A DNA stretch of 62,610 nucleotides, filler included. It is 4 parts of 4 records of this genome, joined end to end, with 100 filler letters (N's around TTAATTAATTAA, not from the genome) between each part and the next. Parts side by side here need not be neighbours in the genome. Positions count along the whole stretch, not along the records: positions 44,176 to 62,610 come from SRR31156797_19612; 3 more parts are not named here. One strand, 5' to 3'. The notes below the pieces were generated by a model. That model saw nothing but the letters and a program-made list of their open reading frames with translations, had not been told where the DNA came from and ran no database searches. A program made the translations under genes and the position numbers. Shown here one piece after another: positions 6,256 through 62,610 of this stretch (the stretch's first letter is position 1; each line of letters starts with the position of its first letter).

Positions 6256-6278
6256 TTTACTTCCACCTCTATAAAATT

Positions 6279-7127: not shown

Positions 7128-7142
7128 TATTACTGCTCCCAA

Positions 7143-10176: not shown

Positions 10177-10188
10177 GGGGGAGAAATT

Positions 10189-44175: not shown

Positions 44176-44432
44176 GTCGTGAACCGAAGGTGGCCCTGAC
44201 AGTATTCGTCGGCGATATCGCACAGGTTGCGAATGGTATAGACGTCGAGCTGCCGGGCGGTGCCGGCCTTGACGGTCCAGACTTCATCGCCGCTTTCGGC
44301 GACGTGGTAGAGGACACCGGCGCGGGGACGTTCGTGGTATTTCCACTGCCCGTAGTTCTTCTTCAGAACCGGGTGCATCCACGCCATATGGTCCGGCACG
44401 CCGCTTTCAATGGGTTGACGGGGTTCAGCCAT
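44176..44432 (-). CDS. dsrB: Dissimilatory-type sulfite reductase beta subunit, N-terminal part (truncated)
   Basis: MAEPRQPIESGVPD...HPVLKKNYGQWKYH...CDIADEYCQGHLRFT, directly downstream of dsrA. Confidence 0.93.
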
Positions 44433-44478
44433 TATAACCTCCAAAAACCTCTTTCTTTTGTGTACCAGCGGGCCGGAA

Positions 44479-45729: not shown

Positions 45730-46535
45730 GGACTTACCTCCAGGAACTCAGAATCAAGTTTTATTCCTTCCGCCGTCGGTGCCGTTCCCGTGAAATAAAG
45801 GGGATTGCTGGAACGGAGCCGCCCGGCCGCTTTATGTTCTTAAAACACCCCCTGTCTTTTGAAGCCCGGGTAAAACCACTGTCTTGCCAAATAAACCGCC
45901 GGTACAATCATTATCGCCGTCCCGCCAAATACTGGTCAGTCGACAAGTTTCAGCTTCAAAGGATTTTGGGACTGTCTAATTTCTTTGTCTTCTTCCCGTT
46001 ACCTCCGCGCCGGCCCTGGATTCGGGCAGGCTTTATGATTATTTCGCGAATTTGAACGCTTTCAATTTAGAATGTTTTATAGTCGATGTGGCAAGCAGAA
46101 ATCCACATGTTTTTGAAGGCTAAGTGCCCTTTTTTGTTGAGAGTTTGTTTCAATATCATGAGTTTTTATTAAGAACCTTTCTCAACAAGAAATAAAAAGA
46201 TATTTTTTCCTTAAAAATCGAACCGAACTGGGCAGAAAAATCGACTCAATACATTTGCCCCGAAAATAATCGTTCTTTGTTTTGTCGATGGATTTCATCG
46301 GGACGATGCCGTTCTTCGTGTGTATTCCAGGGGCGACATTTCCATGAACGAAATATTCATGCCCGGACAGCCGGTACATACATTGGCGAAAGGAAATTAC
46401 TGTAAGCGCTTGCATTTATCCGGGACTCTCGATGAAAAGGGGAGGGCCGAAGGGAATTCAGGGTGAAAGCCGGTTTAAAACAGGCTAGCTTCCGGGATGC
46501 GTCGCAACGGATAGACGAAAACGGGAGACCTGCCG

Positions 46536-46772
46536 GTGCCAACCTATACGCGCGTTTCGGACCTCGGCGACATGAATGTGCCGTGGGGCCGCGTGATCCA
46601 GCTGCAAGACGTGGAATACACGGGCGGGGAGACGATGCTGCGCCTGCGCATACGCGAAGGCCGGCGCATTACCGATCTTGAACTTACGGCGGAAATCGCC
46701 GATGAACTTGGGCGTAAAATGTTATCCTGGGCGAAGGCGTTGCCGAATGGGGCGGCGGACGCCGGCGGCTGA
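46536..46772 (+). CDS. Small conserved hypothetical protein
   Basis: GTG after GGGAGA; PWGRVIQLQDV...LRLRIREGRRITDLEL beta-rich pattern with GC-typical codon use. Confidence 0.6.
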   Translation: MPTYTRVSDLGDMNVPWGRVIQLQDVEYTGGETMLRLRIREGRRITDLELTAEIADELGRKMLSWAKALPNGAADAGG

Positions 46773-46915
46773 GGGTTTTTAGGGCGTTTATGGGTTGAAC
46801 GAAATCGTCGTTCGAACCACCTCAGAAAAGGGTTTGCAGGTATCTGTGAATTGCCGGTACGCGATTGGCGGGCTGCCCGAAACGCAATTGATTGAGTATT
46901 TTCGGAGGGGATGAG

Positions 46916-47848
46916 ATGTCCGAACAAAAATTTCGGTTGGTGACGCGTAGCGATTTCGACGGCCTGGTCTGCGCCGTGCTTCTGAAGGAACTGGACTTGA
47001 TCGACGACATCAAGTTCGTGCATCCGAAGGACATGCAGGACGGCGCCGTCGTCATTTCGGATAACGACCTTACAACCAACCTGCCCTATGTCCACGGCGT
47101 CCATTTGGCGTTCGATCATCATCTCAGCGAGACCATTCGGCTCGACGAAAAGCCCGACAACCACGTCATCGATCCCGAGGCTCCGTCGGCGGCGCGCGTC
47201 GTCTATGACTATTACGGCGGTAAAAAGAGCTTTCCGAATGTTTCCGACGATATCATGGCGGCGGTCGATCAGGGCGATTCGGCGCAGTATTCGGAAGACG
47301 AGATCCTCAATCCCCAGGGCTGGGCGCTGCTGAATTTCCTGATGGATGCCAGAACCGGTTTGGGGCGGTTCAGGACCTTCCGGATTTCGAACTACCAGTT
47401 GATGATGCAGTTGATCGATGAATGCAGAAAACATGACGTCGACGGCATTCTGGCCTTGCCGGACGTGAAGGAACGCATCGAAGTCTACAACGATCACCGT
47501 GGCAAGGCGGCCGAACAGATCCGCCGTTGCGCGACCGTGCACAAGAATTTCGTCGTTCTCGATCTGCGCCAGGAAGAAACGATTTATGCGGCCAACCGTT
47601 TTCTTATCTATGCGCTGTTTCCGGAGACCAACATCTCGGCCCACTTGATGTGGGGTCTGAACAAGCAGAACACGGTTTTCGCGGTCGGCAAATCGATCAT
47701 CAACCGTTCGTCGAAAACGAACATCGGCGAATTGATGCTGTCCTATGGCGGCGGCGGTCACGAGAACGCCGGGACATGCCAGGTTGCCAACGACGATGCC
47801 GATCGTGTCAGGACGGAGCTGATTGCCAAGATCAACGCCGATGGATAG
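46916..47848 (+). CDS. DHH/DHHA1-family phosphoesterase (often labelled exopolyphosphatase-like)
   Basis: TRSDFDG, FDHH and GGGGH motifs. Confidence 0.88.
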   Translation: MSEQKFRLVTRSDFDGLVCAVLLKELDLIDDIKFVHPKDMQDGAVVISDNDLTTNLPYVHGVHLAFDHHLSETIRLDEKPDNHVIDPEAPSAARVVYDYYGGKKSFPNVSDDIMAAVDQGDSAQYSEDEILNPQGWALLNFLMDARTGLGRFRTFRISNYQLMMQLIDECRKHDVDGILALPDVKERIEVYNDHRGKAAEQIRRCATVHKNFVVLDLRQEETIYAANRFLIYALFPETNISAHLMWGLNKQNTVFAVGKSIINRSSKTNIGELMLSYGGGGHENAGTCQVANDDADRVRTELIAKINADG

Positions 47849-47914
47849 CGTCTCGCCGGGCATTTCTGACAGGACCGGTTCGTGCCGGTCCGGTGCCGCC
47901 GCCGGAAAGGCGTG

Positions 47915-49408
47915 ATGAGGATTGGGCCGAACAGGGTTACCGTTGCGACGATGGCGGCCGTCGCAATCGGCGGCATCGCGCTGTTGCCGGTTCTATCGGG
48001 CTGTGTTCCCGACGATTCGGCCCTGTCGCGCGCCGTCGAATCGATCCGCAGTTACACCTATTCCCTGCCGGCCGGCGCGCAGGCGGAACTGTCGCGCTTC
48101 AATCAGGTCTATCAGACCTACGCGTCGAATACCAAGGACACCCGCGAACAGAAGCACTTCAAGGACGCCTTCCTGCGGGTGCGGTCGGATTATATTCAGG
48201 AAGTGCCGGACGCCGACCTCATCGATTCCGCGATCGAAGGCGTCCGCGCCATGGACGCGGAACCGGCAAGCGCGCCGTCCGGCGAAGTCGTCGAGGCGGC
48301 CCTGGACGCGATGGTCGCGTCGCTCGATCCCCATTCCACCTACCTGAACGCCGAGGAACTCAAGGAAACCTTCATATCGACACGCGGCCAGTTCGGCGGG
48401 CTCGGCATCGAAGTGACGATGGAGGACGGCTTGGTCCGGATCGTATCGCCGATCGAGGGCACGCCGGCGTTTCGCGCCGGATTGAAGTCCGGCGATTTGA
48501 TCACGCATCTCGACGGCCGGTCGATCCAAGGTTTCACCATCATGGACGCGGTCAAGATCATGCGTGGCCGGCCGGGCACGGACATTCGTTTAAGTGTGCG
48601 CCGTGAAGACGTTGCGCCGTTTGATGTCACCATTATCCGGGCGGTCATTACCATCCAGGCCGTCCGCTGGCACAGCGAAGGCAATGCCGGCTATATCCGG
48701 GTGGCCAGTTTTACCGAACAGGCGAGGGAAGGCCTCCATAAGGCGATCGCCGCACTGGAAGCGGAAATCGGACCCGGCATGGAAGGGTACATCCTCGATC
48801 TGCGCAACAATCCGGGCGGTTTGCTGGATCAATCGCTGGCCGTCGCCGATACCTTTCTGAACGACGGCAGAATCGTTTCGGTACGCGGGCGCGACGCTTC
48901 GCGCGAACAGGTCTTCTGGGCCGAGGCGGGCGATTTGGCCGCCGGCCGGCCCCTGCTGGTTCTGATCAACCCCGGTTCGGCTTCGGCTTCGGAAATCGTT
49001 GCCAGCGCCCTGCAGGAAGGCGACCGTGCCACGGTCATGGGCCAGCGGTCGTTCGGCAAGGGTTCGGTTCAGACGATCACGCCGTTGCCGGTACAGGGTG
49101 CGTTGAAACTGACGACGGCGCTATATCTGACCCCGCACGGCCACGCCATCCAGGCCCGGGGGGTCATTCCCGATATCGTCGTCGACGGCAAGGCGAAGCC
49201 CGAGCTTCAGAGGGAATCGGACCTTCCCGGCGCCCTTGGCGGCGGCGATAAGATGGTCGGCCCAAGCATCGGCCGGATCGACGAGGACGCCTGTCCGGCC
49301 GCCGGCGAAAAAGGAGACGATCGCCTGCTGGGCTGCGCCCTGGCCTTTCTTACGCTCGGATCGGCCGAAAAGTTTCTCGCCTCATTTGCCGGGGCACCGC
49401 GGATCTGA
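47915..49408 (+). CDS. ctpA: S41 carboxy-terminal processing protease (lipoprotein)
   Basis: LSGC lipobox, LDPHS, GLGIEV PDZ, DLRNNPGG, SASASEI and FGKGSVQ. Confidence 0.92.
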   Translation: MRIGPNRVTVATMAAVAIGGIALLPVLSGCVPDDSALSRAVESIRSYTYSLPAGAQAELSRFNQVYQTYASNTKDTREQKHFKDAFLRVRSDYIQEVPDADLIDSAIEGVRAMDAEPASAPSGEVVEAALDAMVASLDPHSTYLNAEELKETFISTRGQFGGLGIEVTMEDGLVRIVSPIEGTPAFRAGLKSGDLITHLDGRSIQGFTIMDAVKIMRGRPGTDIRLSVRREDVAPFDVTIIRAVITIQAVRWHSEGNAGYIRVASFTEQAREGLHKAIAALEAEIGPGMEGYILDLRNNPGGLLDQSLAVADTFLNDGRIVSVRGRDASREQVFWAEAGDLAAGRPLLVLINPGSASASEIVASALQEGDRATVMGQRSFGKGSVQTITPLPVQGALKLTTALYLTPHGHAIQARGVIPDIVVDGKAKPELQRESDLPGALGGGDKMVGPSIGRIDEDACPAAGEKGDDRLLGCALAFLTLGSAEKFLASFAGAPRI

Positions 49409-49587
49409 CGGCTCCCCCTATTGCATGGTTACGAAAAAAACCCCAATACATTCCCTATATCGATGTGATCCTATTCACTCTGGCGCTCGGCAGGCGTGTG
49501 ATATGGTTCTTCGTTGGTCGTTTTGTTGAAACCGATGAAGCGGCCTTTTCAATCGCCTGCGTACGAGGGGGGCGCGCGTAGTTACTG

Positions 49588-50802
49588 ATGACCGGCACGC
49601 GCATAGAACGCAAACTGACGGCTATTTTTTATGCCGACGTGGCCGGCTACAGCCGTCTGACGGGGGCTGACGAAGAAGGCACGCACCGTCGTCTCAGCGC
49701 CCATCTGGACATGATATCGGCCGCCATTGAATCCTCGACCGGCCGGGTCGTCCACTATGCCGGCGACGCCGTCCTGGCCGATTTCCCCAGCGTCGTCGAT
49801 GCGGTTTCCTGCGCCGTTTCGATCCAGCGCCAATTGCGCGAACGCAACGAAACGACACCGGTCGACCGCCGTGTCGAATTCCGGATCGGCATCAATCTCG
49901 GCGACGTCATGGTTGACCGCAACGACATCTATGGCGACGGCGTCAACGTGGCGGCGCGCCTTGAAGGGTTGGCCGATGTCGGCGGCGTTTGCGTATCCGA
50001 AGCCGTCTACAGCCAGGTCCGCAATCGTCTCGACGTCGGTTTCGAACTCCTCGGCGAAAGAAGCGTCAAAAACATCGCCGAACCGGTCACCGCCTATCGC
50101 CTGCTGATCGATGGTGAGCCGCCGAGAACGCAGCCGCAGCCGATGGCGGAAAAAGCCCAAAAAAGCGGCCGTTTGAAAAGACTATGGTTGAGAAAGCGGC
50201 TCGCATTGCTGGCGATTGCCGTTGCCTTGGGGACCGCGATCGCGGTCGCTTCGGTGCTGGTGGCGCCGACCCAGGTCGCCGAATCGGCGCCGTCGGTGAC
50301 GATCGTTCCGTTCCAGGTGATCGGCGGCGGCGAGGCGTCGGAAAACTTCAGTCAGGGCCTGACCGCCGATCTTGTGACCGAGCTGTCGAAAATTCCGGGC
50401 TTGAAAATCGTCACCCTGCCGTCGCCGAACGTCGAGGACAAGGTGAACCCGGCATCGCCGGTCCTGACCCGTTATCGCGTCGTCGGCAGTGTCCAGGTCG
50501 CCGACGAAAAAGTCCGCGTGACGACCCAGCTCAAGGGAACCGAGAACGGCTTCAACCTTTGGGGCGGCCGCTATGACCGGCCGTTTTCGGATACGTTGCG
50601 GGTGCAGGCGGAAGTGGCGACGAAGATCGTCGCGGCCTTGCAGGGCCAGCTTTCGACCGCCGAGCAGGAGCGTTCGGCATCGAAAACTTCGGTTGCCGGA
50701 TTTCTCGTCACGGGGTTGGAGCAACTGGGCCGGTTCAGCGAATGGTCCTATTCGAGAACGCTGGAACTTTTTGAACGCGTGACCGGTGAAGGTGGTGACT
50801 AA
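49588..50802 (+). CDS. Class III adenylate/guanylate cyclase with TM segment and TolB-N-like domain
   Basis: ADVAGYSRL, AGDA, FRIGINLGD and GDGVNVAARLE. One TM, then VPF...FSQGLTADLVTELS...WGGRYDR. Confidence 0.88.
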   Translation: MTGTRIERKLTAIFYADVAGYSRLTGADEEGTHRRLSAHLDMISAAIESSTGRVVHYAGDAVLADFPSVVDAVSCAVSIQRQLRERNETTPVDRRVEFRIGINLGDVMVDRNDIYGDGVNVAARLEGLADVGGVCVSEAVYSQVRNRLDVGFELLGERSVKNIAEPVTAYRLLIDGEPPRTQPQPMAEKAQKSGRLKRLWLRKRLALLAIAVALGTAIAVASVLVAPTQVAESAPSVTIVPFQVIGGGEASENFSQGLTADLVTELSKIPGLKIVTLPSPNVEDKVNPASPVLTRYRVVGSVQVADEKVRVTTQLKGTENGFNLWGGRYDRPFSDTLRVQAEVATKIVAALQGQLSTAEQERSASKTSVAGFLVTGLEQLGRFSEWSYSRTLELFERVTGEGGD

Positions 50803-50909
50803 TGGTCGAAAATAGGTGGGTTTGCCTCGGTCGCGGGAATGTGAACCGGTTAACAGTGCGGATTGTCGAACTGTGTTATGAAAAGTATGAAATGCTACGG
50901 AGAGGACCG

Positions 50910-52199
50910 ATGAGCGTAGTGAACGTCAGGCAGTTTTCCGCCGTGTTCGGAAGCTTGATCTGCTTGCTATCGATGTCGGCTGTGGGCCAGGAAATCGGCG
51001 ATAAAATCGTCAAGACCGGGATCCACGACGGGCATCTGTACCTTTCCGGCGAAGACGTATCCATCCGCGCCGAAGTTACCGGCAATGTGATTGCCATGGC
51101 CGACGACCTTTTGGTCGATTCGAAAATTTCCGGCGACCTGATCGCGATGGCCGGTGATATCGATATTGACAGCGACGTCGCGGGCGAGTTGCTGGCCCTT
51201 TCCGGAAGCGCCGATATCAGCGGTCATTTCAAAAGCGGCGCCACCATCATGGGCGGAGAACTGGATGTCGAAGGCGAGATCGTAGGTCCGGTTTTTATCG
51301 CCGGCGGCAGCATAGAGACCTCTGGCAGTTTGATTGGAAATACCAAGCTGATGGGGGGGAAAGTCAAAAGTTCGGCGACGGTCGAGGGCGACCTTCTGGC
51401 GGCCGCCGCGAAGGTCGAGTTGACGGAGCGATCGGTCGTTTCCGGCAAGGTCTGGGCGACCGGCGCCAAGGTCGAAGTTTACGGCATTGTCGGCGGCGAA
51501 CTGCGAATTGCCGCGAGAAAAGCCGAGGTCGGCGGGCGCATCGAAGGAGACGTGCATATCGATGCGGTCGAGATCGAAATCATGCCGTCGACCGTGATCG
51601 CCGGAAGCCTGCATTACCGCAGCAGCGAAGAGGCGGAGATCGACCCGAGCGTGACGATCGCCGGCGACGTCGTTTTTGAACGCTCCGACCGGCCGTTACG
51701 CACCGTCGGCATAGCCCACGCCGGCATTGCCATGTTTCTGTTGGCGACCATCGGCGGTTTGATCCTGCTTGGCGCCGTTCAGATTCTGCTCTGCCCGAAC
51801 TTCTCCGTCGAAGCGGCGCGAACGATCCACGCAAGGCCCTGGCCGACGCTGGGATTGGGTTTCGCCATTCTGGTAGCGGCGCCGGTTCTGACCTTTATTC
51901 TGTTCGGCATCATTGTCGGTATCCCGCTTGGTCTGGCTTTGATCGCGCTCTATGTGCTGTTGGTGTTGGCCGGCCTGTTGGTGTCTTCGACCGCAATCGG
52001 AATGAAGGTAATCCGGCTTTTCGGCCGGTCGACCGGCGACAGATTCTGGTCCAGGTTCGGTGTCCTGGTTCTGGGCGTGCTGATTCTCGCCGTCGTCACG
52101 GTGATCCCCATCCTCGGCGCCATCGTCTTCTGCATCTCCCTGTCGTTCGGTATCGGGGCGATGGTCATGAAGTCGCGGGACGTTTGCGTCACCCCGTAG
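50910..52199 (+). CDS. Membrane protein with bactofilin-like/beta-helical repeats and C-terminal multi-TM domain
   Basis: Signal peptide, repeated (V/I)xGD(L/V)xxxGGx(V/I) units, then about 5 TM helices. Confidence 0.75.
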   Translation: MSVVNVRQFSAVFGSLICLLSMSAVGQEIGDKIVKTGIHDGHLYLSGEDVSIRAEVTGNVIAMADDLLVDSKISGDLIAMAGDIDIDSDVAGELLALSGSADISGHFKSGATIMGGELDVEGEIVGPVFIAGGSIETSGSLIGNTKLMGGKVKSSATVEGDLLAAAAKVELTERSVVSGKVWATGAKVEVYGIVGGELRIAARKAEVGGRIEGDVHIDAVEIEIMPSTVIAGSLHYRSSEEAEIDPSVTIAGDVVFERSDRPLRTVGIAHAGIAMFLLATIGGLILLGAVQILLCPNFSVEAARTIHARPWPTLGLGFAILVAAPVLTFILFGIIVGIPLGLALIALYVLLVLAGLLVSSTAIGMKVIRLFGRSTGDRFWSRFGVLVLGVLILAVVTVIPILGAIVFCISLSFGIGAMVMKSRDVCVTP

Positions 52200-52369
52200 G
52201 TTTCGCTTCACGGGCGGTTGCGGGTGTCTCGTTTTCCGGCTGTTTTTCGGTCAAGTCGATCCCTCGGACGCGGGCCGACCCGTTTCGTCCGGCAAACGCC
52301 GCTTGACAGAATCTTTCCATCCCCTCAATTTCTGCGGACAAAAATTTCCTTATTTCAAAGGGGGGATCC

Positions 52370-53356
52370 ATGAAACGTTTATTCGTTGCGGTGTTCGCCG
52401 CGTGTCTCGGCTTTGCATTGGCGCAGCCGGCGCAGGCCGAAAAAGTTCTTCGCATCACCCTGCAACTGCCGATTACCCATCACCTCGGCAAGAACCTCAC
52501 GGCCTTCAAGGACGAGGTCGAGCGCGAGACCAAGGGCGAGATCAAGGTCGAGATCTATCCCTCGGCCCAGCTCTACAAGGACAAGGAAGTGCCGCAGGCG
52601 GTGTCGTCGGGCGCCGTTGAAATGGGCGTCGCATCGATCACCCGTTTTGCCGGGACGATCCCGGCGGTCGATATCTTCTACGTTCCTTTCACCTTCCCGA
52701 CCTGGGATCTGGTGACCAAGGCGACGGCGCCGGGAAGCACGGTTCGCGGGCCGATCGACGCCGAGGTTCTGAAAACCGGTGCCCGTATCCTGTGGTGGCA
52801 GGCCTATGGCGGCGCCATTCTTCTCAGCAAGGGCGATCCGATCGTGACGCCGGCCGACATGAAGGACAAGAAGGTCCGCGTCTTCGGCAAGACGCTGGGC
52901 GAATTCGTCAAGTCCGTCGGTGGCGCGCCGGCGCTTGTTTCCGGTTCGGAACAGTTCCTGGCCTATCAGCGCGGCACGGTCGATGCCGGCATGACCGGCG
53001 TCACCGCCGTCGAAAAGCGTAAGCTTTTCCAGGTCATGGACTATCTGACCGTCACCAACCATGCCGATATCGAGTTCGTCGTGCTGATCAACGAAAAGGT
53101 CTGGCAGGGCCTGACCGACGGCCAGCGGGCGATTGTCGACAAGGCGGCCAAGCGCGTCGAAAAGGAACTGCGCGATGCGATGGGCAAGCTCGAGGCCGAC
53201 GCATTCGCCGCCGTTCGCGACAAGATCAAGGTCATCGAACTGACGCCGGATCAACTCGCCGATTGGCAGAAGTCGACCGCGAGCGTGATCGAAACCTATA
53301 TCAAAACCGCCGGACCGCTCGGCAAACAGCTTGTCGAGGCGGCGAAAAAACTCTAA
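52370..53356 (+). CDS. dctP: TRAP transporter substrate-binding protein
   Basis: Signal peptide, EIYPSAQL, DMKDKKVRV, AYQRGTVD and W..L...R. Confidence 0.93.
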   Translation: MKRLFVAVFAACLGFALAQPAQAEKVLRITLQLPITHHLGKNLTAFKDEVERETKGEIKVEIYPSAQLYKDKEVPQAVSSGAVEMGVASITRFAGTIPAVDIFYVPFTFPTWDLVTKATAPGSTVRGPIDAEVLKTGARILWWQAYGGAILLSKGDPIVTPADMKDKKVRVFGKTLGEFVKSVGGAPALVSGSEQFLAYQRGTVDAGMTGVTAVEKRKLFQVMDYLTVTNHADIEFVVLINEKVWQGLTDGQRAIVDKAAKRVEKELRDAMGKLEADAFAAVRDKIKVIELTPDQLADWQKSTASVIETYIKTAGPLGKQLVEAAKKL

Positions 53357-53419
53357 ACAGCCGGCCGGGGCGGCGGAATCGTTTCCGCCGCTCCAGCACT
53401 TTTGTTGATCCGGCCCCAA

Positions 53420-53923
53420 ATGCTTAACTTCGTCGAACGCCTCAGCGAAATCTGCGGCAAGCTGGCCGCGGGCATGTTTTTCGTCGTCGGCGGGATGATC
53501 ACCTACGAGGTGGTCGCCCGTTACGTCTTTCTTGCGCCGACGGTCTGGGCCGAGGAAATATCCCGCTTCGCGCAGATCTGGGCGACCTATCTGGCCGCCG
53601 CCTATGTCCTGAAAAACCGCAACCTCATCCGCATCGACCTGTTGACCGGGCGACTGAATGCGGCTTGGCGCCGCTTTTTCGAGGCCCTGGCCCTGGTCTT
53701 CATCGGCGTTTTCTGCATCGTTGCCATCACTTACGGGACCGGCATCGTCGCCGAATCGATCGAAATGGGCCGTGCCACGTCGACCATGTTGGCGGTTCCG
53801 CGTTGGATGACCGAAAGCGCCGTGCCGATCGGTTTTGCCATCCTGCTGCTGCAATGCCTGGCCGAACTGGGCCGGGTTTTCACCGACCCGTCCTACGGAA
53901 CGGCAAGCGGGGATGAAACATGA
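53420..53923 (+). CDS. dctQ: TRAP transporter small permease
   Basis: EVVARYVF..PTVWAEEISR, IRIDLL and four TM helices. Confidence 0.92.
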   Translation: MLNFVERLSEICGKLAAGMFFVVGGMITYEVVARYVFLAPTVWAEEISRFAQIWATYLAAAYVLKNRNLIRIDLLTGRLNAAWRRFFEALALVFIGVFCIVAITYGTGIVAESIEMGRATSTMLAVPRWMTESAVPIGFAILLLQCLAELGRVFTDPSYGTASGDET

Positions 53924-55191
53924 CCGCGCTGATCATCCTGCTGGTGCTGCTCGGCCTGCTGCTGGCCGGAATTCCGGTCGCCTTTGCCTTGGGCGGGCTC
54001 GGCCTGATCCTGATGTGGCTGGGCGATATTTCGCCGGTGATGGTGCCGCAGGCCTTGTACAGCACGGCCGACAACTTCGTCCTGCTGGCGGTGCCGTTGT
54101 TCCTGCTGATGTCGAACGTTCTGCTCAAGGGCGGCGTCGGACGCGATCTTTTCAACGCGGTTCAAACCTGGGTCGGACATTGGCCGGGCGGCCTTGCCGT
54201 CGCGACGATCATTTCCTGCGCCCTTTTTTCGGCGATCTCGGGTTCGTCGGTGGCCACCGCCGCGACCATCGGCACGGTGGCGATCCCGGAAATGATCGGC
54301 CGCGGCTATCACCGGCCGTTCGTTCTTGGACTGCTGGCGGCGGGCGGAACGCTGGGCATCCTGATCCCGCCGTCGATTCCGATGATCGTCTATGGCGTCA
54401 TTACCGAGGAATCCATCGTCGATCTGTTTCTTGCCGGGGTCGGTCCGGGGCTATTGCTGTCGGGTATTTTCATCCTGTTCAGTCTCGGTTATGCCCGTTT
54501 CGGCGGCGGCTATACGCCGACGGAAAAAGCGACCTGGCAGGAACGCTCGGCCGCCACCTTGCGGGCCCTGCCGACGGCCATCCTCGCGGTCATCGTCATC
54601 GGCGGCATCTATGCCGGCGTCTTCACACCGACGGAATCAGCCGGCGTCGGGTTCGCCGTTTCGCTGGTTATCGTCTTCGCGCTTGGCACCATGACCTGGG
54701 AAAAACTGAAGGACGCGGTCCTCGATGCCATGCGCACGACGGTGACCATCTTCCTGATCATCGGCGGTGCCAAGGTGTTCGGCAAGGCGATCACGCTGTA
54801 TCGCATTCCGCAGGATATCTCGACGGCGATTGCCGCCAATATCCCCGAGGCCGGCCTGTTCATCCTGATCGTCTGCGGCGTCCTGCTGATCATGGGCTGT
54901 TTCCTCGAATCGCTGTCCATGTTGCTGATCATGGTGCCGGTGCTTTTGCCATCGCTGATGGCGCTCGGCATCGATCCGATCTGGTTCGGGGTGATCTTCG
55001 TCATCATGATCGAATGCGCCCTGATCACGCCGCCGGTCGGCCTCAACCTGTTCGTCATCCAGGCGGTCGGGAATGTCACCATATCCGAGGTTCTGCGTGG
55101 CGTCTGGCCGTTCATCCTGATGCTTTTCGCGACCGTTGCCATCGTCTATTTCATTCCCGACGTCGCCCTGTATATTCCGTTCAAACTATAG
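53920..55191 (+). CDS. dctM: TRAP transporter large permease
   Basis: SGSSVATAA, GILIPPSI, FTPTES and ITPPVGLNLF. Confidence 0.95.
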   Translation: MTALIILLVLLGLLLAGIPVAFALGGLGLILMWLGDISPVMVPQALYSTADNFVLLAVPLFLLMSNVLLKGGVGRDLFNAVQTWVGHWPGGLAVATIISCALFSAISGSSVATAATIGTVAIPEMIGRGYHRPFVLGLLAAGGTLGILIPPSIPMIVYGVITEESIVDLFLAGVGPGLLLSGIFILFSLGYARFGGGYTPTEKATWQERSAATLRALPTAILAVIVIGGIYAGVFTPTESAGVGFAVSLVIVFALGTMTWEKLKDAVLDAMRTTVTIFLIIGGAKVFGKAITLYRIPQDISTAIAANIPEAGLFILIVCGVLLIMGCFLESLSMLLIMVPVLLPSLMALGIDPIWFGVIFVIMIECALITPPVGLNLFVIQAVGNVTISEVLRGVWPFILMLFATVAIVYFIPDVALYIPFKL

Positions 55192-55214
55192 AATCTCTGC
55201 ACCGGGAGGGTGCC

Positions 55215-56078
55215 ATGCAATCATCGCCGGCCGAGAGACTGCGCACCCTGTTGGCGCGTCCCGGCATATTGGTCATGCCCTGCTGTTACGACGCCTTCTC
55301 GGCGCGATTGATCGAACGGGCCGGTTTCCCCCTGACCTTCATGAGCGGTTTCGCCGTTTCGGCGGCGCGTCTGGCGGTGCCGGACACCGGCCTGATCTCG
55401 TTCGCCGAGATGCTCGATCAGGGGCGCAACATCTGCTCGGCGGTGTCGATCCCGGTCTTCGGCGACGGCGATACGGGTTACGGCAACGCGCTCAACGCCA
55501 AACGCACGGTTCGCGAATACGCCCGGGCCGGATTCGCCGGCATCATGATCGAGGATCAGGTCGCGCCGAAACGATGCGGGCACACCCGCGGCAAGCAGGT
55601 GATCGGTTTCGATATGGCCTGCCAACGCCTGCAGGCCGCCGTCGATGCGCGTGACGAAGGGGCCGATATCGTGATCATGGCGCGCACCGATGCGCGCGAA
55701 ACCGACGGCATCGACGAAGCCCTGCGCCGCATCCGCGCCTTCGCCGACATCGGCGCCGACGTGCTGTTCCTCGAGGCGCCGCGCTCGGAAGACGAAATGA
55801 AAGCCTTCTGCGAGGCCGTTCCCGGCCCGAAAATGGCCAACATGGTCGAACAGGGCGCAACACCGGTGCTGCCGCCCGACCGGCTGGCCGACATCGGCTA
55901 TAAGATCGCGGCCTATCCGCTGACCCTTCTTCTCGCCGCCATTCCCGCCATCGAGCGGGCGCTGAAATCCATTGCCGAAGGGAAAACGCCGGAAGGCCTG
56001 GCGACCTTCGCCGAGCTGCAGGATGTTGTCGGTTTCCCGGAATATTTCGAAGCCGAAAAACGGTATTCGACGGAATAA
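55215..56078 (+). CDS. Isocitrate lyase/PEP mutase family protein (CPEP-mutase/dimethylmalate-lyase-like)
   Basis: YDAFSAR, MSGF, DGDTGYG, IEDQ..PKRCGH, ARTDA and ANMVEQG. ATG at 55215 after GGGAGG. Confidence 0.92.
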   Translation: MQSSPAERLRTLLARPGILVMPCCYDAFSARLIERAGFPLTFMSGFAVSAARLAVPDTGLISFAEMLDQGRNICSAVSIPVFGDGDTGYGNALNAKRTVREYARAGFAGIMIEDQVAPKRCGHTRGKQVIGFDMACQRLQAAVDARDEGADIVIMARTDARETDGIDEALRRIRAFADIGADVLFLEAPRSEDEMKAFCEAVPGPKMANMVEQGATPVLPPDRLADIGYKIAAYPLTLLLAAIPAIERALKSIAEGKTPEGLATFAELQDVVGFPEYFEAEKRYSTE

Positions 56079-56190
56079 TGAACCGGCCTCTGGTCCAAAA
56101 ACCCAATAATCCCGGGATTGCCTGCCGGTCCGCGCGTCCGCATACTCGGGTTTTATCGGCGCCGTCGAATGCCGGCGGAATCGCGCGGAC

Positions 56191-57261
56191 ATGACCAAAA
56201 GGAGGAGGAGCCTGGACTTGGGCGGTATGGACGACAATCAAAAAGCGGACCTTTCAATCGCGGCCGATGCGACCCGCATCCGGGCCGATCTGGTCCGGCT
56301 CGGCCTGGCCGGACCGAGGGAAAACCCGCGCATCGAACCGCTCGCCGGCGGCGTTTCGTCGGACATCTTCCGGGTCGATCTCGCATCGGGTCCGGTCTGC
56401 ATCAAACGCGCCCTGGCGAAACTGAAGGTCGCCGCCGATTGGCGGGCGCCGGTCGAACGCAACCAATATGAATTCGCCTGGATGCGGGCGGCGGCCCGGG
56501 TCGAACCGACGGCGGTTCCGGAACTGCTGGCCGAGGATGCCGAAGCCGGCCTTTTTGTCATGCGCTTTCTCGATCCCGCCGACCATCCGGTTTGGAAAGC
56601 ACAGCTGCTGGACGGCCACGCAATTCCCGAAACGGCGCACGCCGTTGGCTTGCGGATCGGCCACATCCACGCCAGCACCGCTGGCGACGATACCGTCCGC
56701 GAGGCCTTCGCGACCGACCACATTTTCCATCCGATCCGGCTCGAACCCTATCTGCTGGCGACGGCACAGGCGCACCCGAAAGTCGCCGCGCAATTGGAAA
56801 GCCTGGCCGAAACAACGTTGGCCACCAAGAAGGCGCTGGTTCACGGCGATGTCAGCCCGAAGAACATCCTGGTCGGACCCGACGGGCCGGTGTTCCTCGA
56901 CGCCGAATGCGCCTGGTACGGCGATCCGGCCTTCGACCTGGCCTTCTGCCTCAATCACCTGCTGCTCAAATGCCTGTGGAAACCGGCGGTTACCGGCGAC
57001 TACCTTGGCTGTTTCGATGCCATGACCGTGGCCTACCTGTCGACGGTGTCGTGGGAGCCGCCTGACGAACTGGAACGGCGCACCGCGGCGCTATTGCCGG
57101 CCCTGTTCCTGGCCCGCGTCGACGGCAAATCCCCGGTCGAATACCTGACCGACGAGGCCGACAAGAACAGGGTGCGCCGGGTCGCGCTGGCCTTGCTCCA
57201 ATCCGAAGTCGAAACCCTGGAATCCATAAGAAACGCCTGGAATAAGGAGATGCACACGTGA
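56191..57261 (+). CDS. APH/methylthioribose-kinase-like small-molecule kinase
   Basis: LAGGVSSDIF, IKRAL..L.V..DW.AP.ER...E, HGDVSPKNIL and LDAECAWYGDPAFD. Start may instead be 56227. Confidence 0.85.
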   Translation: MTKRRRSLDLGGMDDNQKADLSIAADATRIRADLVRLGLAGPRENPRIEPLAGGVSSDIFRVDLASGPVCIKRALAKLKVAADWRAPVERNQYEFAWMRAAARVEPTAVPELLAEDAEAGLFVMRFLDPADHPVWKAQLLDGHAIPETAHAVGLRIGHIHASTAGDDTVREAFATDHIFHPIRLEPYLLATAQAHPKVAAQLESLAETTLATKKALVHGDVSPKNILVGPDGPVFLDAECAWYGDPAFDLAFCLNHLLLKCLWKPAVTGDYLGCFDAMTVAYLSTVSWEPPDELERRTAALLPALFLARVDGKSPVEYLTDEADKNRVRRVALALLQSEVETLESIRNAWNKEMHT

Positions 57262-58547
57262 ATCCCAACATCATCACAACGGTACGCGGCAGGCGGGTAT
57301 GGGATTCGCGTGGGCGCCCGACGGTCGAAGTGGAAATCGGGCTGGCCGGCGGCAAGACCGGCCGTGCCATCGCCCCAGCCGGCGCATCGACCGGCGCCGG
57401 CGAGGCGTTGGACCTGCGTGACGGCGGCGAAACCTTCGGCGGATACGGCGTTGAAAAGGCGCTGGCCAATATCAACGGCGAAATCAGGCTGACCATTGCC
57501 GGTCTCGATGCCCGCGATGGCGCCGAGATCGACCGCACCCTGATCGAACTCGACGGCACGCCGAACAAAAGCCGTCTCGGCGGCAACGCCATCATTGCCG
57601 TTTCGCTGGCCTTGCTTCACGCCGCCGCGGCTGCCGCCGACGAACCCCTTTGGCGCTATCTGGGCGGTGACGGCGTGAAGACGATTCCGTTGCCGGAAAT
57701 TCAGATTTTCGGCGGCGGCGCCCATGCCAGCACCCGGATCGATATCCAGGACTTCATGGTGACGATGCCGGGCGCGTCGAGCTTCGACGAGGCGATGGCC
57801 TGGACCGCCGAGGTCTATCGCAAGGCCGGGGAAATCATGGCCGATTCCGGCCGCCTGCGCGGGGTGGCCGACGAAGGTGGCTTCTGGCCGGTGTTCGAAA
57901 CCAACGAGGAAGGGCTGGGCCTGCTGGTGCAGGCGATCGAAAAGGCCGGCCTGGTGCCCGGCGAGCAGGCGGCCATCGCGCTTGATATCGCCGCCACCGA
58001 ATTCGGGAAAAACGGCCGCTACAAACTGGCGCTTGAGGAACGCGAATTGGATTCCGACGGTCTATGTGAACTGCTGATCGGCTGGATCGACCGCTATCCC
58101 ATCGTTTCGATCGAAGATCCCCTGGGCGAGGACGACGTTGAAGGCACGCGGCGCTTCACGGAAGCCGTCGGCGATCGGGTTCAGATCGTCGGCGACGATT
58201 TCGTCGTGACGGACGCCTCGCGCATCAAGGAAGCGGCAAAGCTGGGTGCCTGTAACTGTGCCCTCATCAAGCCCAACCAAGCCGGCACCGTTTCCGAAAC
58301 CAAGGCCGCCGTCGACGCCGCCAAGGATGCCGGTTGGGGCGCCATCGTATCGGCCCGGTCGGGCGAGACCGAGGACGTGTCGATCGTCCATCTGGCCGTC
58401 GGCTGGGGCGTGTCGCAGCTCAAGGTCGGAGCCTTCGCGCGGGCCGAACGCATGGCCAAGTGGAACGAGGCCCTGCGCATCGAGGAACTGCTGGGCGCCG
58501 ATGCCAGGTTTCCGGGGAACGCACCGTTCGAAAGGTTCGGGCAATAG
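57258..58547 (+). CDS. Enolase-family protein, divergent paralogue
   Basis: DSRGRPTVEV, GASTG, DEGG, IEDP, GDD, IKPNQ, RSGETED, KVG and ER.AK.N. GTGA overlap with the kinase stop. Confidence 0.92.
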   Translation: MNPNIITTVRGRRVWDSRGRPTVEVEIGLAGGKTGRAIAPAGASTGAGEALDLRDGGETFGGYGVEKALANINGEIRLTIAGLDARDGAEIDRTLIELDGTPNKSRLGGNAIIAVSLALLHAAAAAADEPLWRYLGGDGVKTIPLPEIQIFGGGAHASTRIDIQDFMVTMPGASSFDEAMAWTAEVYRKAGEIMADSGRLRGVADEGGFWPVFETNEEGLGLLVQAIEKAGLVPGEQAAIALDIAATEFGKNGRYKLALEERELDSDGLCELLIGWIDRYPIVSIEDPLGEDDVEGTRRFTEAVGDRVQIVGDDFVVTDASRIKEAAKLGACNCALIKPNQAGTVSETKAAVDAAKDAGWGAIVSARSGETEDVSIVHLAVGWGVSQLKVGAFARAERMAKWNEALRIEELLGADARFPGNAPFERFGQ

Positions 58548-58623
58548 GGCGAACGCCGGCTGGGTCTGTCATAGCCCTGCTTGAAACCGGCGGCGGACAC
58601 ATCCGCCATCGGAAAAACCTGTA

Positions 58624-59202
58624 ATGAAAGGGGACGTCGGGATGAGGCTCCCATATTCGCTTTTCGGTTTGCTGTCTTTGGTCATTCTCGCCGGTTGCGC
58701 CGCGCCTGCCGCGATGCCGCCGCCGCAACAGCAATTGCCGCCCGTCGGCGGTCCTGTGTATCGGCTCGATGTCGCCACGGTTGAGATTTTTCGACCGGCG
58801 GCACAACCGGCCGGAACGGTGATCGACATGTCGGTCGCTGTCGAACAGTACCTGCGCGACCACCTTCTGGCGGTCGGAACCAGCGGACGGGTGCGCGCCA
58901 GCATCAACGACGCGGCCGTGCGCCAATCAGTCATGCGCCGAACCGCCCCGGGCGGCACGTCGTTCCAGCGGGTCCGCCAATACGACGGCATGGTTCATGT
59001 CCGTATCGACGCCACCGACCGCTCGACCCAACGGGCCGCCTTTGCCGGCGGTTCGGCCAGCCGCAGCCAGGCGGCGGACGCCAATATTCCGGTCGATCAG
59101 CAACAGCGGATGGCCAGTGATATGGCCGACGCCCTGATGTTGGATTTCGAGGCCAGCCTGTCGGCCGATGTCAACCGTAGGTTGGGTGCATTCCTGCGCT
59201 AG
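58624..59202 (+). CDS. Uncharacterised lipoprotein
   Basis: Lipobox LAGC followed by a Pro/Gln linker. Confidence 0.65.
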   Translation: MKGDVGMRLPYSLFGLLSLVILAGCAAPAAMPPPQQQLPPVGGPVYRLDVATVEIFRPAAQPAGTVIDMSVAVEQYLRDHLLAVGTSGRVRASINDAAVRQSVMRRTAPGGTSFQRVRQYDGMVHVRIDATDRSTQRAAFAGGSASRSQAADANIPVDQQQRMASDMADALMLDFEASLSADVNRRLGAFLR

Positions 59203-59741
59203 ACGGTTCCGGTAAATCCGGAGATTGGTGCGGCAGGTCCAGACCGTTTCGGGGTAAACACGAAACCCTCGATCGGGACGATTTTGCTTCGTGGCCAGGC
59301 AGGCTTCGAAATGCGATGTGCGAAGCATCGAACGAGAAGGCCAACGCCGCCACGGAGCAAAAGAATCCGGCCGAAGGTTGGTATTCGGGCCCATCGTCCG
59401 CGTTGCGGCGCTTGTCCAATGGCCCGAACATTGCCCCGCGCGCCGCGCCGATTCCGGTGGCCCCATCCGTTCCCATCAAATTGCCTCCGACTCACCCGGA
59501 CGCGCCCTGAAGGTCAGAAGTCCTGATCTCCCTTGAATTCTCCTTTATACCTCCTATCTGTCTGACGTCTTTTGTGGGGGAAATTCTCGAAATAATTGTT
59601 TCTTTTTGGGGGCGGGTTGTGAAGCATTCTTTTAAGGGGTTCGCGGGAGTTTTGCGCGAGCAGGCGATAAAACAGTTTGAGTTGCACAAAAATTACATTG
59701 GGCGTCGGAATGAATCCTGGGGCAAAGGCCGCTTGGAGGCT

Positions 59742-61529
59742 ATGCGGACATTGCGTATCGGGCTGGGCGCCCTGTCGCTGGTTTTTGCCTCATCGCAGGC
59801 CTTCGCATATGACGTTACAGAAGATGACGGAGCAACCGCGGCAACGGAGCCGTATAAAACGATCACAGTTCAAGCATCGGAATTTATAAACGGAGACAGT
59901 CTTGTTTTAGGTAGAAGCGGATCGCCCGCCTTTGCCGTCGGCGATACCATCGAGATTACGTTGAGTGGCGGCGCGACTTTTGCCGACAGCACCATCGTTC
60001 TTGAGAACTCCTCAGGCGGTGCCGGCACCGGCGCCCTTACGGACGCCGTCGTGCAAACGGGTTCTCCGGCCGGCAAGTCGACGATCAGATACACCCTGCA
60101 GAACAACAGCGGAAACATTGCTACAACAGTAGGGTATATTTTGAGCGGCGATACTATTGCAGGTCAACGCGTTAACTTTAACCTGCCTCAGGTTCACGGC
60201 AGGGATATCTATATTACTTTTACGGTGCGTAATTCGGGAGGCGCGTTGAAAGGCAGCGTGCGGCATTTGCTGTTTGACAATACTCTGGCTCGAGGCTCAA
60301 CCGCAGCTGAATCCCAAAGCGCGGTCCAAAATGTGTTGGCGACACACATTCGAAACATGACGGCCCAGAGTGTCGGGCTATCCGGTTTGATGACGGGACG
60401 CGGATTTGGCGGCGGCAACGCCGGCAACCTGAGCGGTCTGTTCGGAAATTCCGAACCCCTGAACAAGTTTATGGCCGCAGCTCCGGAGATCAGCCTGCCC
60501 GTCTCAGTGGAGATGTTGGGCGGGCAAGGCAATTTCGCCGCAAGTTTGAATCAAATAAAAGCCTGGGACGGAAGCCTTGGCATCGGCGAACAGAAGTCCG
60601 GCGGCATGCCGCCAAGCCAACTTGTCGATATGGACACTCCTTTCAATGTCTGGATCAAGGGGCGTTGGCAAGGCTTTACGGATACCCGTGGCGGATCAAA
60701 GGGTGAGGGTGATTTCGGTTTGCTTATGACGGGGGCGGACTACCGCTATAGCGAAAACACCCTGATCGGCCTTCTCGCACAGTTTGATTTATACAATCAA
60801 ACCGCCACCGGCCAGGACAGCAGAGGCAAGGGACATGGCTGGATGTTTGGGCCCTATCTTGTCACGCGCCCGGTCGACAATCTGATTTGGGATGCCCGGA
60901 TCGCCTGGGGAATGTCGAAAAACAAGATCGATCCATCGGGCTTTGGCTGGGAGAAATTCGACGGTGAGCGTTGGCAGTTCGAGACAAACCTGACCGGCGA
61001 ATTTGAATACCAGGACTGGGATATCTTCCCGCAGTTGGGGATGACCTACTTCGAGGAAGAACAGCAGGCTTACACCAACCCCAACGCAAGCATTAACGGA
61101 ATCGAAGTTGGATCGCAGACTGTCGGGGTCGGCAATCTTAGCTTCGGCCCCGAGGTTTCACGTTCCTGGGAACAGTCGGAGGACATCACCTTACGTCCTT
61201 TTGCGGCCTTCAGAGGAATATGGGATTTCGAAGCCCCCGACATCGCCCACACCGACGGCAGCAGCATCAACACGGAAAAGCTGCGGGCGAGAGTCGAGTT
61301 CGGAGGGGACGTCACTTTTAAAGACAGCAGCAGCGTATATGCCAAATATACCTATGACGGGATCGGTCTGGCCGGCTACGAGGCGCACAGCCTGGAACTC
61401 ATCGCCAGCACTCCGGTTGATTTCGGGTTCTTGCCGCTTGGCGGTAATTTGAAAAGTTCCTTTAGCCAGTCCGTAAGTGAAATTAACACAAGCCAATTCA
61501 AGCTTAACTTGGATGTGCCCTTGAATTAG
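59742..61529 (+). CDS. Autotransporter beta-domain outer-membrane protein with short passenger
   Basis: Signal peptide (AFA), beta-rich passenger, then W.KGRW, GADYR..E..LIGLLAQFD and GWMFGPY amphipathic strands. Confidence 0.8.
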   Translation: MRTLRIGLGALSLVFASSQAFAYDVTEDDGATAATEPYKTITVQASEFINGDSLVLGRSGSPAFAVGDTIEITLSGGATFADSTIVLENSSGGAGTGALTDAVVQTGSPAGKSTIRYTLQNNSGNIATTVGYILSGDTIAGQRVNFNLPQVHGRDIYITFTVRNSGGALKGSVRHLLFDNTLARGSTAAESQSAVQNVLATHIRNMTAQSVGLSGLMTGRGFGGGNAGNLSGLFGNSEPLNKFMAAAPEISLPVSVEMLGGQGNFAASLNQIKAWDGSLGIGEQKSGGMPPSQLVDMDTPFNVWIKGRWQGFTDTRGGSKGEGDFGLLMTGADYRYSENTLIGLLAQFDLYNQTATGQDSRGKGHGWMFGPYLVTRPVDNLIWDARIAWGMSKNKIDPSGFGWEKFDGERWQFETNLTGEFEYQDWDIFPQLGMTYFEEEQQAYTNPNASINGIEVGSQTVGVGNLSFGPEVSRSWEQSEDITLRPFAAFRGIWDFEAPDIAHTDGSSINTEKLRARVEFGGDVTFKDSSSVYAKYTYDGIGLAGYEAHSLELIASTPVDFGFLPLGGNLKSSFSQSVSEINTSQFKLNLDVPLN

Positions 61530-61571
61530 GGCGCGTCGGAGTCAAACGGTTCCTACTGACCCCAACACGTT

Positions 61572-62285
61572 TTAGAACAGCCGTCCGATTCCGATCAGGC
61601 CGTTGGCGTCGGCCGCCAGATTGAAGCGCTTGGCGCTGCGCAGTTCCTCGCCGTATGACGCACCGTGGATTTTTCGCGGATCGGTTTTTCTGGGCGGGTT
61701 GACCGCGATGCCGCTGGTATCCAATGCGAAAAGGGCCTCGGGGAACGTCAACTTGGCGAACCGTTCCGACGGATAGGCATAGGCGTTGAACCGAAACCGT
61801 CCGTTTTCGCAGGCCGAGACCACCCAATAGAAATTGTCGGAATGAAGCTGGATCCGCCCGGTCAGCGGCGTCTCGAAGCCGCTTTCCGTCAGGGATCGGC
61901 GAATTTGCCTGAATTCCGTGTCCGTCAATTGCCTTTCGAACGCCTTCGCGCGCCATGGCGACAGCAGGTCGAGCGGATTTTCCAGCCTGATCTTGGAAAG
62001 GTCGGGGCGGCCGGCAACACGGGTCCGCAGGACCGTTCGTCCGTCGTTGGCCACCGTCAAGTCGTAGGCCCGCACCTGTTCGACATAAACCCCGTTATAG
62101 ACCATGCGGTACCGATCGATGCCGTCATTGCCGCAGCCGTATCCGATGTCGTCGCCGTTAAGATAGCTGTACCAAGACAGATTGCGTTCGACCGGCGTCG
62201 TCGTTTCGCCATCGTAGGCACAGCCGGCAATAACCAACCCGGATAAAACGATTGCGGCCGTCCGGCCAATCCACGTGTCTCCCAT
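61572..62285 (-). CDS. Uncharacterised lipoprotein
   Basis: Lipobox IAGC; WYSYLNGDDI...C and RYRMVYNG.Y.EQVR.YD. ATG after GGGAGGA. Confidence 0.7.
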   Translation of the reverse strand: MGDTWIGRTAAIVLSGLVIAGCAYDGETTTPVERNLSWYSYLNGDDIGYGCGNDGIDRYRMVYNGVYVEQVRAYDLTVANDGRTVLRTRVAGRPDLSKIRLENPLDLLSPWRAKAFERQLTDTEFRQIRRSLTESGFETPLTGRIQLHSDNFYWVVSACENGRFRFNAYAYPSERFAKLTFPEALFALDTSGIAVNPPRKTDPRKIHGASYGEELRSAKRFNLAADANGLIGIGRLF

Positions 62286-62610
62286 TCGATCCTCCCGACG
62301 ATGCCAACGATCCGCTGGCAATATAGTGCAACTCAAGACAGGCCGTTTCAAACCATTGCTTGAACGGCCCGTTCGTTCAAAACCTGATATGACAGGTTTT
62401 GGTCTGCCCTTGTTTTTCGAATCGGCCGGCTTTTGGCGGGTTTCGGCCGTGATTGCAACGCCAGCCGGAAAAGCCCGGAATTCCGGGCCTGTGACGGCCG
62501 TCACAGCCATATTACCGCAAGTTTTGATAATGTTTCTCAGGTTCGAACAGGTGCCGGTGCGCCTGCGCGCAGCCAACTGTTTGAAATATATGGATAAAAT
62601 TTTATGGAAA

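Follow-up and report, generated by a model that had tools for sequence, protein, structure and literature searches.

The gene pair at the locus

The window analysed here is a stretch of 62,610 nucleotides joined from four records of one genome, with filler between the parts; positions 44,176 to 62,610 derive from SRR31156797_19612. In this last part, two overlapping genes encode an APH-fold kinase and a protein of the enolase family with an altered subsite around C3 of the substrate. The enolase-family protein is a member of a large unstudied branch of kinase-coupled enolases that carry Asp at position 165, Ala at position 366 and Ser or Gly at position 152, with the APH kinase encoded upstream. 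It probably belongs to a dedicated two-step route into phosphoenolpyruvate (PEP) and is probably not a glycolytic enzyme. The features of the pair are as follows.

56191-57261, plus strand: APH-fold small-molecule kinase gene, 356 amino acids; the end of the gene and the enolase start have 4 nucleotides in common
57245-57250, plus strand: Shine-Dalgarno-like AAGGAG within the 3' end of the kinase gene, 8 nucleotides before the enolase GTG
57258-58547, plus strand: variant (Asp/Ala) enolase-family gene, 429 amino acids, GTG start; Enolase_N and Enolase_C domains
57711-57713, plus strand: codon of Gly152, found where canonical enolases have the Asn of their NGG loop motif
57750-57752, plus strand: codon of Asp165, equivalent to yeast Glu168
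58353-58355, plus strand: codon of Ala366, equivalent to yeast His373

The product of the second gene matches the Pfam families Enolase_N (1.9e-46) and Enolase_C (4.7e-87), and yeast enolase chains matched it at E 2.9e-88. With the NCBI model TIGR01060 for the phosphopyruvate hydratase equivalog it reaches 479 bits and thus lies above the cut-off of 300. Yeast residue numbers were given to the protein by motif equivalence. In the alignment to solved enolases, the motifs GASTG, DEGG, ALD, IED, GDD, IKPNQ and RS as well as the Lys of QLKVG are kept, and the catalytic and ligand residues D243, E286, D313, K338, E206, K389, R367, S368, H156 and S44 are all present. The initial annotation, made by eye, had described an enolase paralogue with an intact catalytic core and three altered motifs (SHRS to SARS, QEF to QDF, NxxNGG to QIFGGG). 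The alignment to solved enolases agrees with it on both counts: IQIFGGGAHA stands in place of MNIMNGGQHA, QDFMV in place of QEFMI and SARSGE in place of SHRSGE, and the codons it had assigned to residues 165 and 366 are correct by arithmetic. Neither Glu168 nor His373 of enolase is found in the window protein, which has Asp165 and Ala366 instead.

A structure model of the protein (AF2, AlphaFold2), built on 62 relatives, has a mean pLDDT of 95.3 and a pTM of 0.93. It superposes on solved enolases in Foldseek with a TM of 0.96 and a root-mean-square deviation of 1.2-1.7 Å at identities of at most 50%, and none of the top Foldseek matches was a solved structure of the variant type. Both replaced residues belong to the side of the active site that faces C3. 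His373 is linked with the chemistry of the C3 hydroxyl and water. As to the changed Glu, a study of the M. tuberculosis enolase states that a water molecule mediates the action of Glu163 and Glu204 on the terminal carbon atom of PEP (PMC10619443).

The variant residues as a family trait

A word-index search with the window enolase gave at least 8000 matches, of which the best 120 were taken (66-97% identity to the window enolase). Where these relatives are named, all are annotated as enolase or phosphopyruvate hydratase. Together with the query, all 121 sequences carry D165, A366, G152 and A204; V390 is found in 120, and one has a gap at this position. The substitutions are therefore not a peculiarity of the window sequence.

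For a wider comparison, a set of 151 rows was assembled. The query and 150 representatives from an exhaustive search were filtered for at least 380 aligned positions out of 429, which removed 10 sequences, and the five carrier genomes contributed their 10 enolase copies. By the residues equivalent to Glu168 and His373, 87 rows are of the Glu/His (canonical) state, 39 of the Asp/Ala state and 25 of other states. Position 165 is Asp in 39/39 Asp/Ala rows and Glu in 87/87 Glu/His rows, position 366 is Ala in 39/39 and His in 87/87, respectively. At position 152, the Asn of 81 of the 87 canonical rows contrasts with Ser (21) or Gly (16) in the 39 Asp/Ala rows. The two groups differ further at position 204, with Gly in 85/87 canonical rows and Ala in 30/39, and at position 390 following the Lys396 equivalent, where Val or Ile is present in 38/39 Asp/Ala rows versus Thr, Ala or Ser in most canonical rows. 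Chance is excluded as the source of the pattern at positions 165, 366 and 152.

Among 62 members of the family (40-97% identity to the window protein), 35 columns are invariant, and these comprise the acid and base residues as well as every ligand of metal, phosphate and carboxylate. No or almost no variation is seen at D243, E286, D313, K338, R367, S368, K389, Q164, H156 and S44. The view that the replacements do not reflect decay thus stands, as they are fixed in all close relatives and in a branch-defined group in which the other catalytic and ligand residues do not vary.

In a FastTree phylogeny of the 151 rows, one branch with a support of 99 holds all 39 Asp/Ala rows together with 19 other non-Glu/His rows and not a single canonical row. 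A quick IQ-TREE run was made with 66 rows, namely the window sequence, the 10 genome copies and a random choice of 20 Asp/Ala, 25 Glu/His and 10 other rows. A branch with an SH-aLRT value of 93 separates 30 canonical and 3 other rows on one side from all 26 Asp/Ala rows on the opposite side. As to a monophyletic SARS/QDF clade, for which the initial annotation had suggested a check, the separation from canonical rows by a single supported branch is thus confirmed; a single origin is likely, though not established by these unrooted trees.

A literature search yielded no description of an Asp/Ala enolase branch or of an APH-type glycerate kinase in the texts that it covered. Two records were set aside: a preprint concerning 2-phospho-L-glycerate (10.64898/2026.05.18.725363), which has a cytidylyltransferase as its subject and makes no mention of enolase, and PMC12994016, which deals with an L-threonate dehydrogenase.

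The APH-fold kinase and its coupling to the enolase

The upstream gene product matches the Pfam family APH (7.2e-17) and, weakly, the structural chains PDB 2pyw and 2olc. It is not a member of TIGR01767 (5-methylthioribose kinase), to which it scores 63 bits with a cut-off of 275. It matches APH-type families only and belongs neither to the GarK/GlxK fold (PF02595) nor to the MOFRL fold (PF05161). A look-up in the ESM Atlas led no further than generic phosphotransferase clusters. In the alignment of kinase orthologs the nucleotide and catalytic motifs are kept, and five further Arg are invariant; the invariant residues include G53, G54, K72, E94, G219, D220, N225, D237, R90, R183, R297, R309 and R329. 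The five Arg outside the nucleotide motifs suggest an anionic substrate for the kinase.

For the analysis of gene order, 80 related loci were taken from species genomes. In 75 of them the gene immediately before the enolase, in the same orientation, is a kinase ortholog. Three of the remaining five loci end at a contig edge (L006, L046, L049), and two have no kinase in the stretch examined (L026, L038). All-against-all clustering of open reading frames from 81 sources placed the enolase in 80 and the kinase in 74 sources, followed by a 2-hydroxyacid dehydrogenase in 17; no third conserved gene beside the pair emerged from this clustering. Fusion proteins of APH kinase and enolase were also detected (P0127, P0202 and the partial P0122), whereas fusions of canonical enolases carry unrelated domains. 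The enolase is thus obligately coupled, in genetic terms, to a dedicated kinase, and the translationally coupled kinase gene, which the initial annotation had overlooked, is the main clue to its function. At the DNA level, the Enterobacter copy of the pair had no counterpart in E. coli genomes.

Distribution in genomes and canonical copies

All five cultured carriers (G001-G005) possess a canonical Glu/His enolase scoring 675-692 bits in addition to the Asp/Ala copy with 458-479 bits, so that the designation as a paralogue holds for the relatives. Paracoccus seriniphilus, Rhizobium panacihumi and Sneathiella chinensis are examples of carriers in culture. All five also have a glycerate kinase of a known type, which is of the PF02595 family and present twice in G002 and of the MOFRL type in G001, G003, G004 and G005. 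Together with the kinase coupling, this makes the altered substrate proposed by the initial annotation plausible.

The distribution was further followed in an even pick of 201 genomes from one class, which includes one flagged as unpublished (G037). An enolase match was found in 195 genomes, with two matches in 21. Fourteen of the 201 genomes contain the kinase, and every one of them belongs to the 21 with two enolase matches. An enolase similar to P0001 (53-67% identity) is present in 12/201 genomes, in 11 of which the kinase is adjacent by coordinates. G194 has a more distant Asp/Ala enolase adjoining its kinase, and G026 and G166 have the kinase and a second enolase match. The second enolase copy in G106 is canonical, and in 3 of the 21 two-match genomes, as for other weak best matches, contig-end fragments of the canonical type with 42-47% identity were found. 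The possibility that the variant serves some genomes as their sole enolase was rejected for this reason, and no variant-only genome was found among the 201 searched. The role of a sole or main glycolytic enolase does not fit these data, as all five cultured carriers have a higher-scoring canonical copy. The variant was therefore set outside the phosphopyruvate hydratase equivalog, since both the two defining residues and the housekeeping role are absent.

The only variant enolase without a kinase in the 201 genomes is that of G121 (L101, G121:C14:5305-9555; enolase at 1501-2781, minus strand). It carries the exchanges H156P, Q164R and D205N. This single case suggests that the orphan copy is decaying and that the enolase may be unconstrained where the kinase is missing.

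Gene neighbourhoods of the pair

Beyond the pair, the neighbours differ from locus to locus and are mostly genes of sugar-acid catabolism. The families found, with their counts among the 81 sources, are:

D-isomer 2-hydroxyacid dehydrogenase: 17
short-chain dehydrogenases/reductases (SDRs): 10
sugar ABC transporter ATPase: 8
TRAP transporter DctM: 7
FAH-family hydrolases: 6
LacI regulators: 6 and 3 (two clusters)
aldehyde dehydrogenase: 4
pyruvate kinase: 4
DeoC-type aldolase: 4
galactarate/altronate dehydratase: 3
IlvD/Edd dehydratase: 3

The gene directly downstream of the pair encodes a D-isomer 2-hydroxyacid dehydrogenase in 9/62 cases, and directly upstream of the kinase housekeeping or regulatory genes are often located (TPR, IclR, GNAT, SAICAR synthase). 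In operons of the Rhodobacterales type and in Roseibium, the pair is followed by a FAH-family protein, SDRs and a sugar ABC transporter. The best model for this FAH-family neighbour is 2,4-didehydro-3-deoxy-L-rhamnonate hydrolase, with 356-358 bits versus a cut-off of 500. Operons with the pair in Roseibium and Paracoccus have no dehydratase within 8 kb. Dehydratase genes accompany the pair elsewhere: L043 has a sugar porter, a sugar dehydrogenase-like SDR, an aldehyde dehydrogenase and, directly upstream of the pair, two MR-type dehydratases, and a Burkholderia plasmid with the pair has two UxuA genes.

L073 (Rhizobium, 3720-13559) and L015 (Enterobacter, 6973-13302) share a gene string of the kinase, the variant enolase, a TcuC-like MFS acid transporter, a D-2-hydroxyacid dehydrogenase, an MhpD-like hydratase and an HpaI-like aldolase; HpcH-type aldolases occur in both. 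One string of genes directly upstream of the pair in L073 additionally encodes a GarR equivalog (469 versus 451 bits), a MOFRL glycerate 2-kinase and a GarL equivalog (439 versus 393). On the plasmid pPR12A204 of Rhizobium indicum (L099, 8986-19248) the pair is split. The variant enolase lies between genes for a cupin and a two-domain VOC protein in an ABC-transporter operon, and the kinase is found 4.5 kb away on the opposite strand, together with a CtBP-type 2-hydroxyacid dehydrogenase and a PEP carboxylase. Nothing in the neighbourhoods points in particular to the 2-phosphosulfolactate or 2-phosphotetronates named by the initial annotation.

In the window itself, the genes upstream of the pair are:

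52370-53356, plus strand: TRAP transporter gene dctP
53402-53923, plus strand: TRAP transporter gene dctQ
53920-55191, plus strand: TRAP transporter gene dctM
55215-56078, plus strand: gene of the isocitrate-lyase/PEP-mutase family (Pfam PEP_mutase, 4e-48), with a KRCGHTRGK loop

The gap from stop to start is 23 nucleotides between the TRAP operon and the 55215-56078 gene and 112 nucleotides between the latter and the kinase gene, with no terminator-like site found on the plus strand between these two. The product of 55215-56078 scores 256 bits with the PrpB model (cut-off 354) and 228 with the model for carboxy-PEP mutase (CPEP-mutase, cut-off 420), and its KRCGH loop is presumably typical of lyases. 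These TRAP and isocitrate-lyase-like genes are a local addition outside the conserved module. A phosphonate pathway was considered and rejected, as the PEP-mutase neighbour lies below the family cut-offs, has the KRCGH loop and stands beside the pair in 2/81 sources.

Further genes on the same record were noted in passing. Directly downstream of the enolase, 58624-59202 (plus strand) encodes a protein of 192 amino acids that carries a lipoprotein-like signal (LAGC) and falls into no Pfam family, and 59574-61529 (plus strand) encodes a protein of 651 amino acids with an autotransporter beta-domain (PF03797, 4.9e-21). Within 49588-52199 (plus strand) lies an adenylate/guanylate cyclase-domain gene, the last base of which is the first base of the next start codon; the gene that follows, within the same interval and on the same strand, encodes 465 amino acids with a weak match to the bactofilin domain. 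A member of the nitrite/sulfite reductase 4Fe-4S family (416 amino acids) is encoded at 44479-45729 (minus strand), about 11 kb upstream of the pair.

A proposed two-step route and its alternatives

We favour, with moderate confidence, the interpretation that kinase and variant enolase form one two-step module, in which a 2-hydroxy acid of the glycerate type is phosphorylated at position 2 and then converted to PEP by beta-elimination. The kinase (56191-57261) would use ATP to phosphorylate the 2-hydroxyl group of a glycerate-type acid that bears a leaving group at C3. The variant enolase would then bind the resulting 2-phospho acid through its unchanged sites for two Mg ions, Arg/Ser and Lys/Gln; the equivalent of Lys345 would take the C2 proton, and the group at C3 would be expelled with the help of the Glu211 equivalent. 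PEP formed in this way would enter central metabolism. The site of phosphorylation, the product and the substrate class all belong to this proposal, which builds on four observed features: the intact machinery of enolase, the altered subsite at C3, the obligate genetic coupling and the presence of a canonical enolase alongside. PEP would be the most economical product because of the pyruvate kinase genes near the pair (4/81) and the PEP carboxylase in L099, and with PEP as the product no conserved downstream enzyme is to be expected.

Candidate substrates are L-glycerate, a 3-substituted lactate and D-glycerate itself, the plain form of the last being unlikely. L-rhamnose- and L-fucose-type routes release pyruvate together with a C3 2-hydroxy acid or aldehyde. 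L-glycerate may be the most attractive candidate, because it is the hexose counterpart of the L-lactate that arises from the diketo-acid hydrolase and aldolase routes of the L-rhamnose/L-fucose type, homologs of which flank the pair; a 3-substituted lactate is an alternative candidate. We tentatively put forward a wider reading, which is possible though doubtful, that the branch and its kinase assimilate a C3 acid beyond the reach of the housekeeping enzymes, via a non-canonical 2-phospho acid to PEP, so that the enolase family proper would not be isofunctional.

Several observations weigh against the proposed module and its special substrate. Every neighbourhood is compatible with the ordinary conversion of D-glycerate to 2-phosphoglycerate and PEP, and the commonest extra neighbour, the D-isomer 2-hydroxyacid dehydrogenase, would make ordinary D-glycerate from hydroxypyruvate. 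Many loci have only housekeeping neighbours (TPR proteins, SAICAR synthase, FolD) and give no hint of a pathway, and PEP as the product is deduced from four pyruvate kinase neighbours and one PEP carboxylase neighbour. Several glycerate kinases per genome are common, and the known-type kinases of the carriers are therefore weak evidence. The order of TRAP and isocitrate-lyase-like genes in the window is shared only with the closest genome locus (L052, 77% identity), i.e. in 2/81 sources, and the likely single origin of the variant state is drawn from trees without a root.

The alternative that survives best is an ordinary, non-orthologous branch of glycerate metabolism, in which the kinase would represent a novel type of D-glycerate 2-kinase and the enolase would act on D-2-phosphoglycerate, the Asp and Ala residues merely tuning kinetics, regulation or resistance to inhibitors. 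The TIGR01060 score above the cut-off and the retention of all first-shell residues are in line with it, as are neighbours that would make D-glycerate (D-2-hydroxyacid dehydrogenase, aldolases, aldehyde dehydrogenase) and the nearby pyruvate kinase and PEP carboxylase genes, which also form part of known gene sets for tartrate and the serine cycle. With ordinary 2-phosphoglycerate as the kinase product, however, no enolase beyond the housekeeping one would be needed, yet a second enolase match accompanies the kinase in every case (14/14); the co-inheritance, the kinase-enolase fusions and the degeneration of the only kinase-less copy would then be hard to explain. Moreover, the carriers already own glycerate kinases, and in L073 a second D-glycerate kinase would be redundant because of the MOFRL glycerate 2-kinase in the same gene string. 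The replacement of two residues that are invariant in 87/87 canonical rows also argues against this explanation, which we regard as unlikely.

The second alternative follows the initial annotation and assumes a bulkier substituent at C3, taken up by the enlarged subsite. Here the pair would act as an ATP-primed sugar-acid dehydratase, and a substituted phosphoenol-2-keto-3-deoxy acid would arise from the 2-phosphorylated form of a C4-C6 acid sugar (threonate, erythronate or an aldonate). The strict differences are all exchanges for smaller residues on the C3 side (Glu to Asp, His to Ala, Asn to Ser or Gly), a dehydratase is missing from the Roseibium and Paracoccus operons within the 8 kb covered, and the HpcH-type aldolases of L015 and L073 could cleave a keto-deoxy product. 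A conserved downstream enzyme would be needed for such a product, but the next family reaches only 17/81 sources. Other operons already contain dehydratases, namely the two of the MR type in L043 and the two UxuA of the Burkholderia plasmid, and PEP is the better match for neighbours such as pyruvate kinase and PEP carboxylase. We consider a C4-C6 substrate distinctly unlikely.

Still in keeping with PEP as the product, the leaving group could be other than hydroxide, with 3-sulfolactate, 3-O-methylglycerate or isoserine giving PEP plus sulfite, methanol or ammonia. Both replaced residues are tied to the chemistry of the C3 hydroxyl and water, as described above, the subsite is larger and less polar (A366, A204, V390), and the diketo-acid hydrolase routes would give a 3-substituted lactate from a 6-substituted hexose. 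On the other side, no sulfite exporter, sulfite oxidase, sulfoquinovosidase or similar protein is among the neighbour families present in at least 3 loci, and the variant group has no new conserved cationic residue to hold a sulfonate; such a leaving group is very unlikely. That the enolase is a non-catalytic or decaying copy, be it as a pseudo-enzyme or in a moonlighting or structural role beside the kinase, is extremely improbable, since the replacement of two normally invariant catalytic-site residues and the clearly degenerate G121 copy are outweighed by the 35 invariant columns with all ligands and acid/base residues and by decay being seen only where the kinase is missing.

Enolase has been treated as a family with a single function, and all members of the branch are automatically annotated as phosphopyruvate hydratase. 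If the branch has its own substrate, a widespread step of sugar-acid or C3-acid metabolism would be missing from bacterial pathway maps, and the reaction would be misnamed in thousands of phosphopyruvate hydratase annotations. The proposed module would also add a new class of hydroxy-acid kinases, and two residues of enolase regarded as catalytic would prove to be determinants of specificity.

Comparison with known systems

Four systems invite comparison with the pair. PhpH, an enolase homolog of phosphinothricin biosynthesis that works with a carboxy-PEP mutase and acts on a modified 2-phosphoglycerate, offers a parallel in that the window pair adjoins a gene of the PEP-mutase/isocitrate-lyase family; the window differs in having neither a PEP mutase proper nor other phosphonate genes. 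The nearest characterised relative of the kinase, MtnK, has the same APH/protein-kinase-like fold, as reflected in the weak matches to TIGR01767, 2pyw and 2olc, but the window kinase lies far below the MtnK cut-off and no methionine-salvage genes are located nearby.

In the tartrate, glucarate and serine-cycle routes, a glycerate 2-kinase of the MOFRL/TtuD or GarK/GlxK type is followed by the housekeeping enolase and pyruvate kinase. The pair would follow the same logic, with a hydroxy acid being phosphorylated and then dehydrated to PEP, and it has the same kinds of neighbours, such as aldolases, a GarR-like reductase, 2-hydroxyacid dehydrogenase, pyruvate kinase and PEP carboxylase. It differs in its kinase, which has the APH fold and is unrelated to both glycerate kinase families found in the carriers, and in having a dedicated altered enolase as the dehydratase in place of the housekeeping one.

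Finally, the variant shares with canonical enolase (EC 4.2.1.11; TIGR01060; PF03952 and PF00113; e.g. Chloroflexus, M. tuberculosis, E. coli) the two-domain fold (TM 0.96; 42-50% identity to solved chains), the metal ligands, the residues binding phosphate and carboxylate, the Lys345 and Glu211 equivalents and the His159 loop. In contrast to canonical enolase, it carries the Asp, Ala and Ser/Gly changes across a supported branch, is tied to a kinase, and is an extra copy in the genomes examined.

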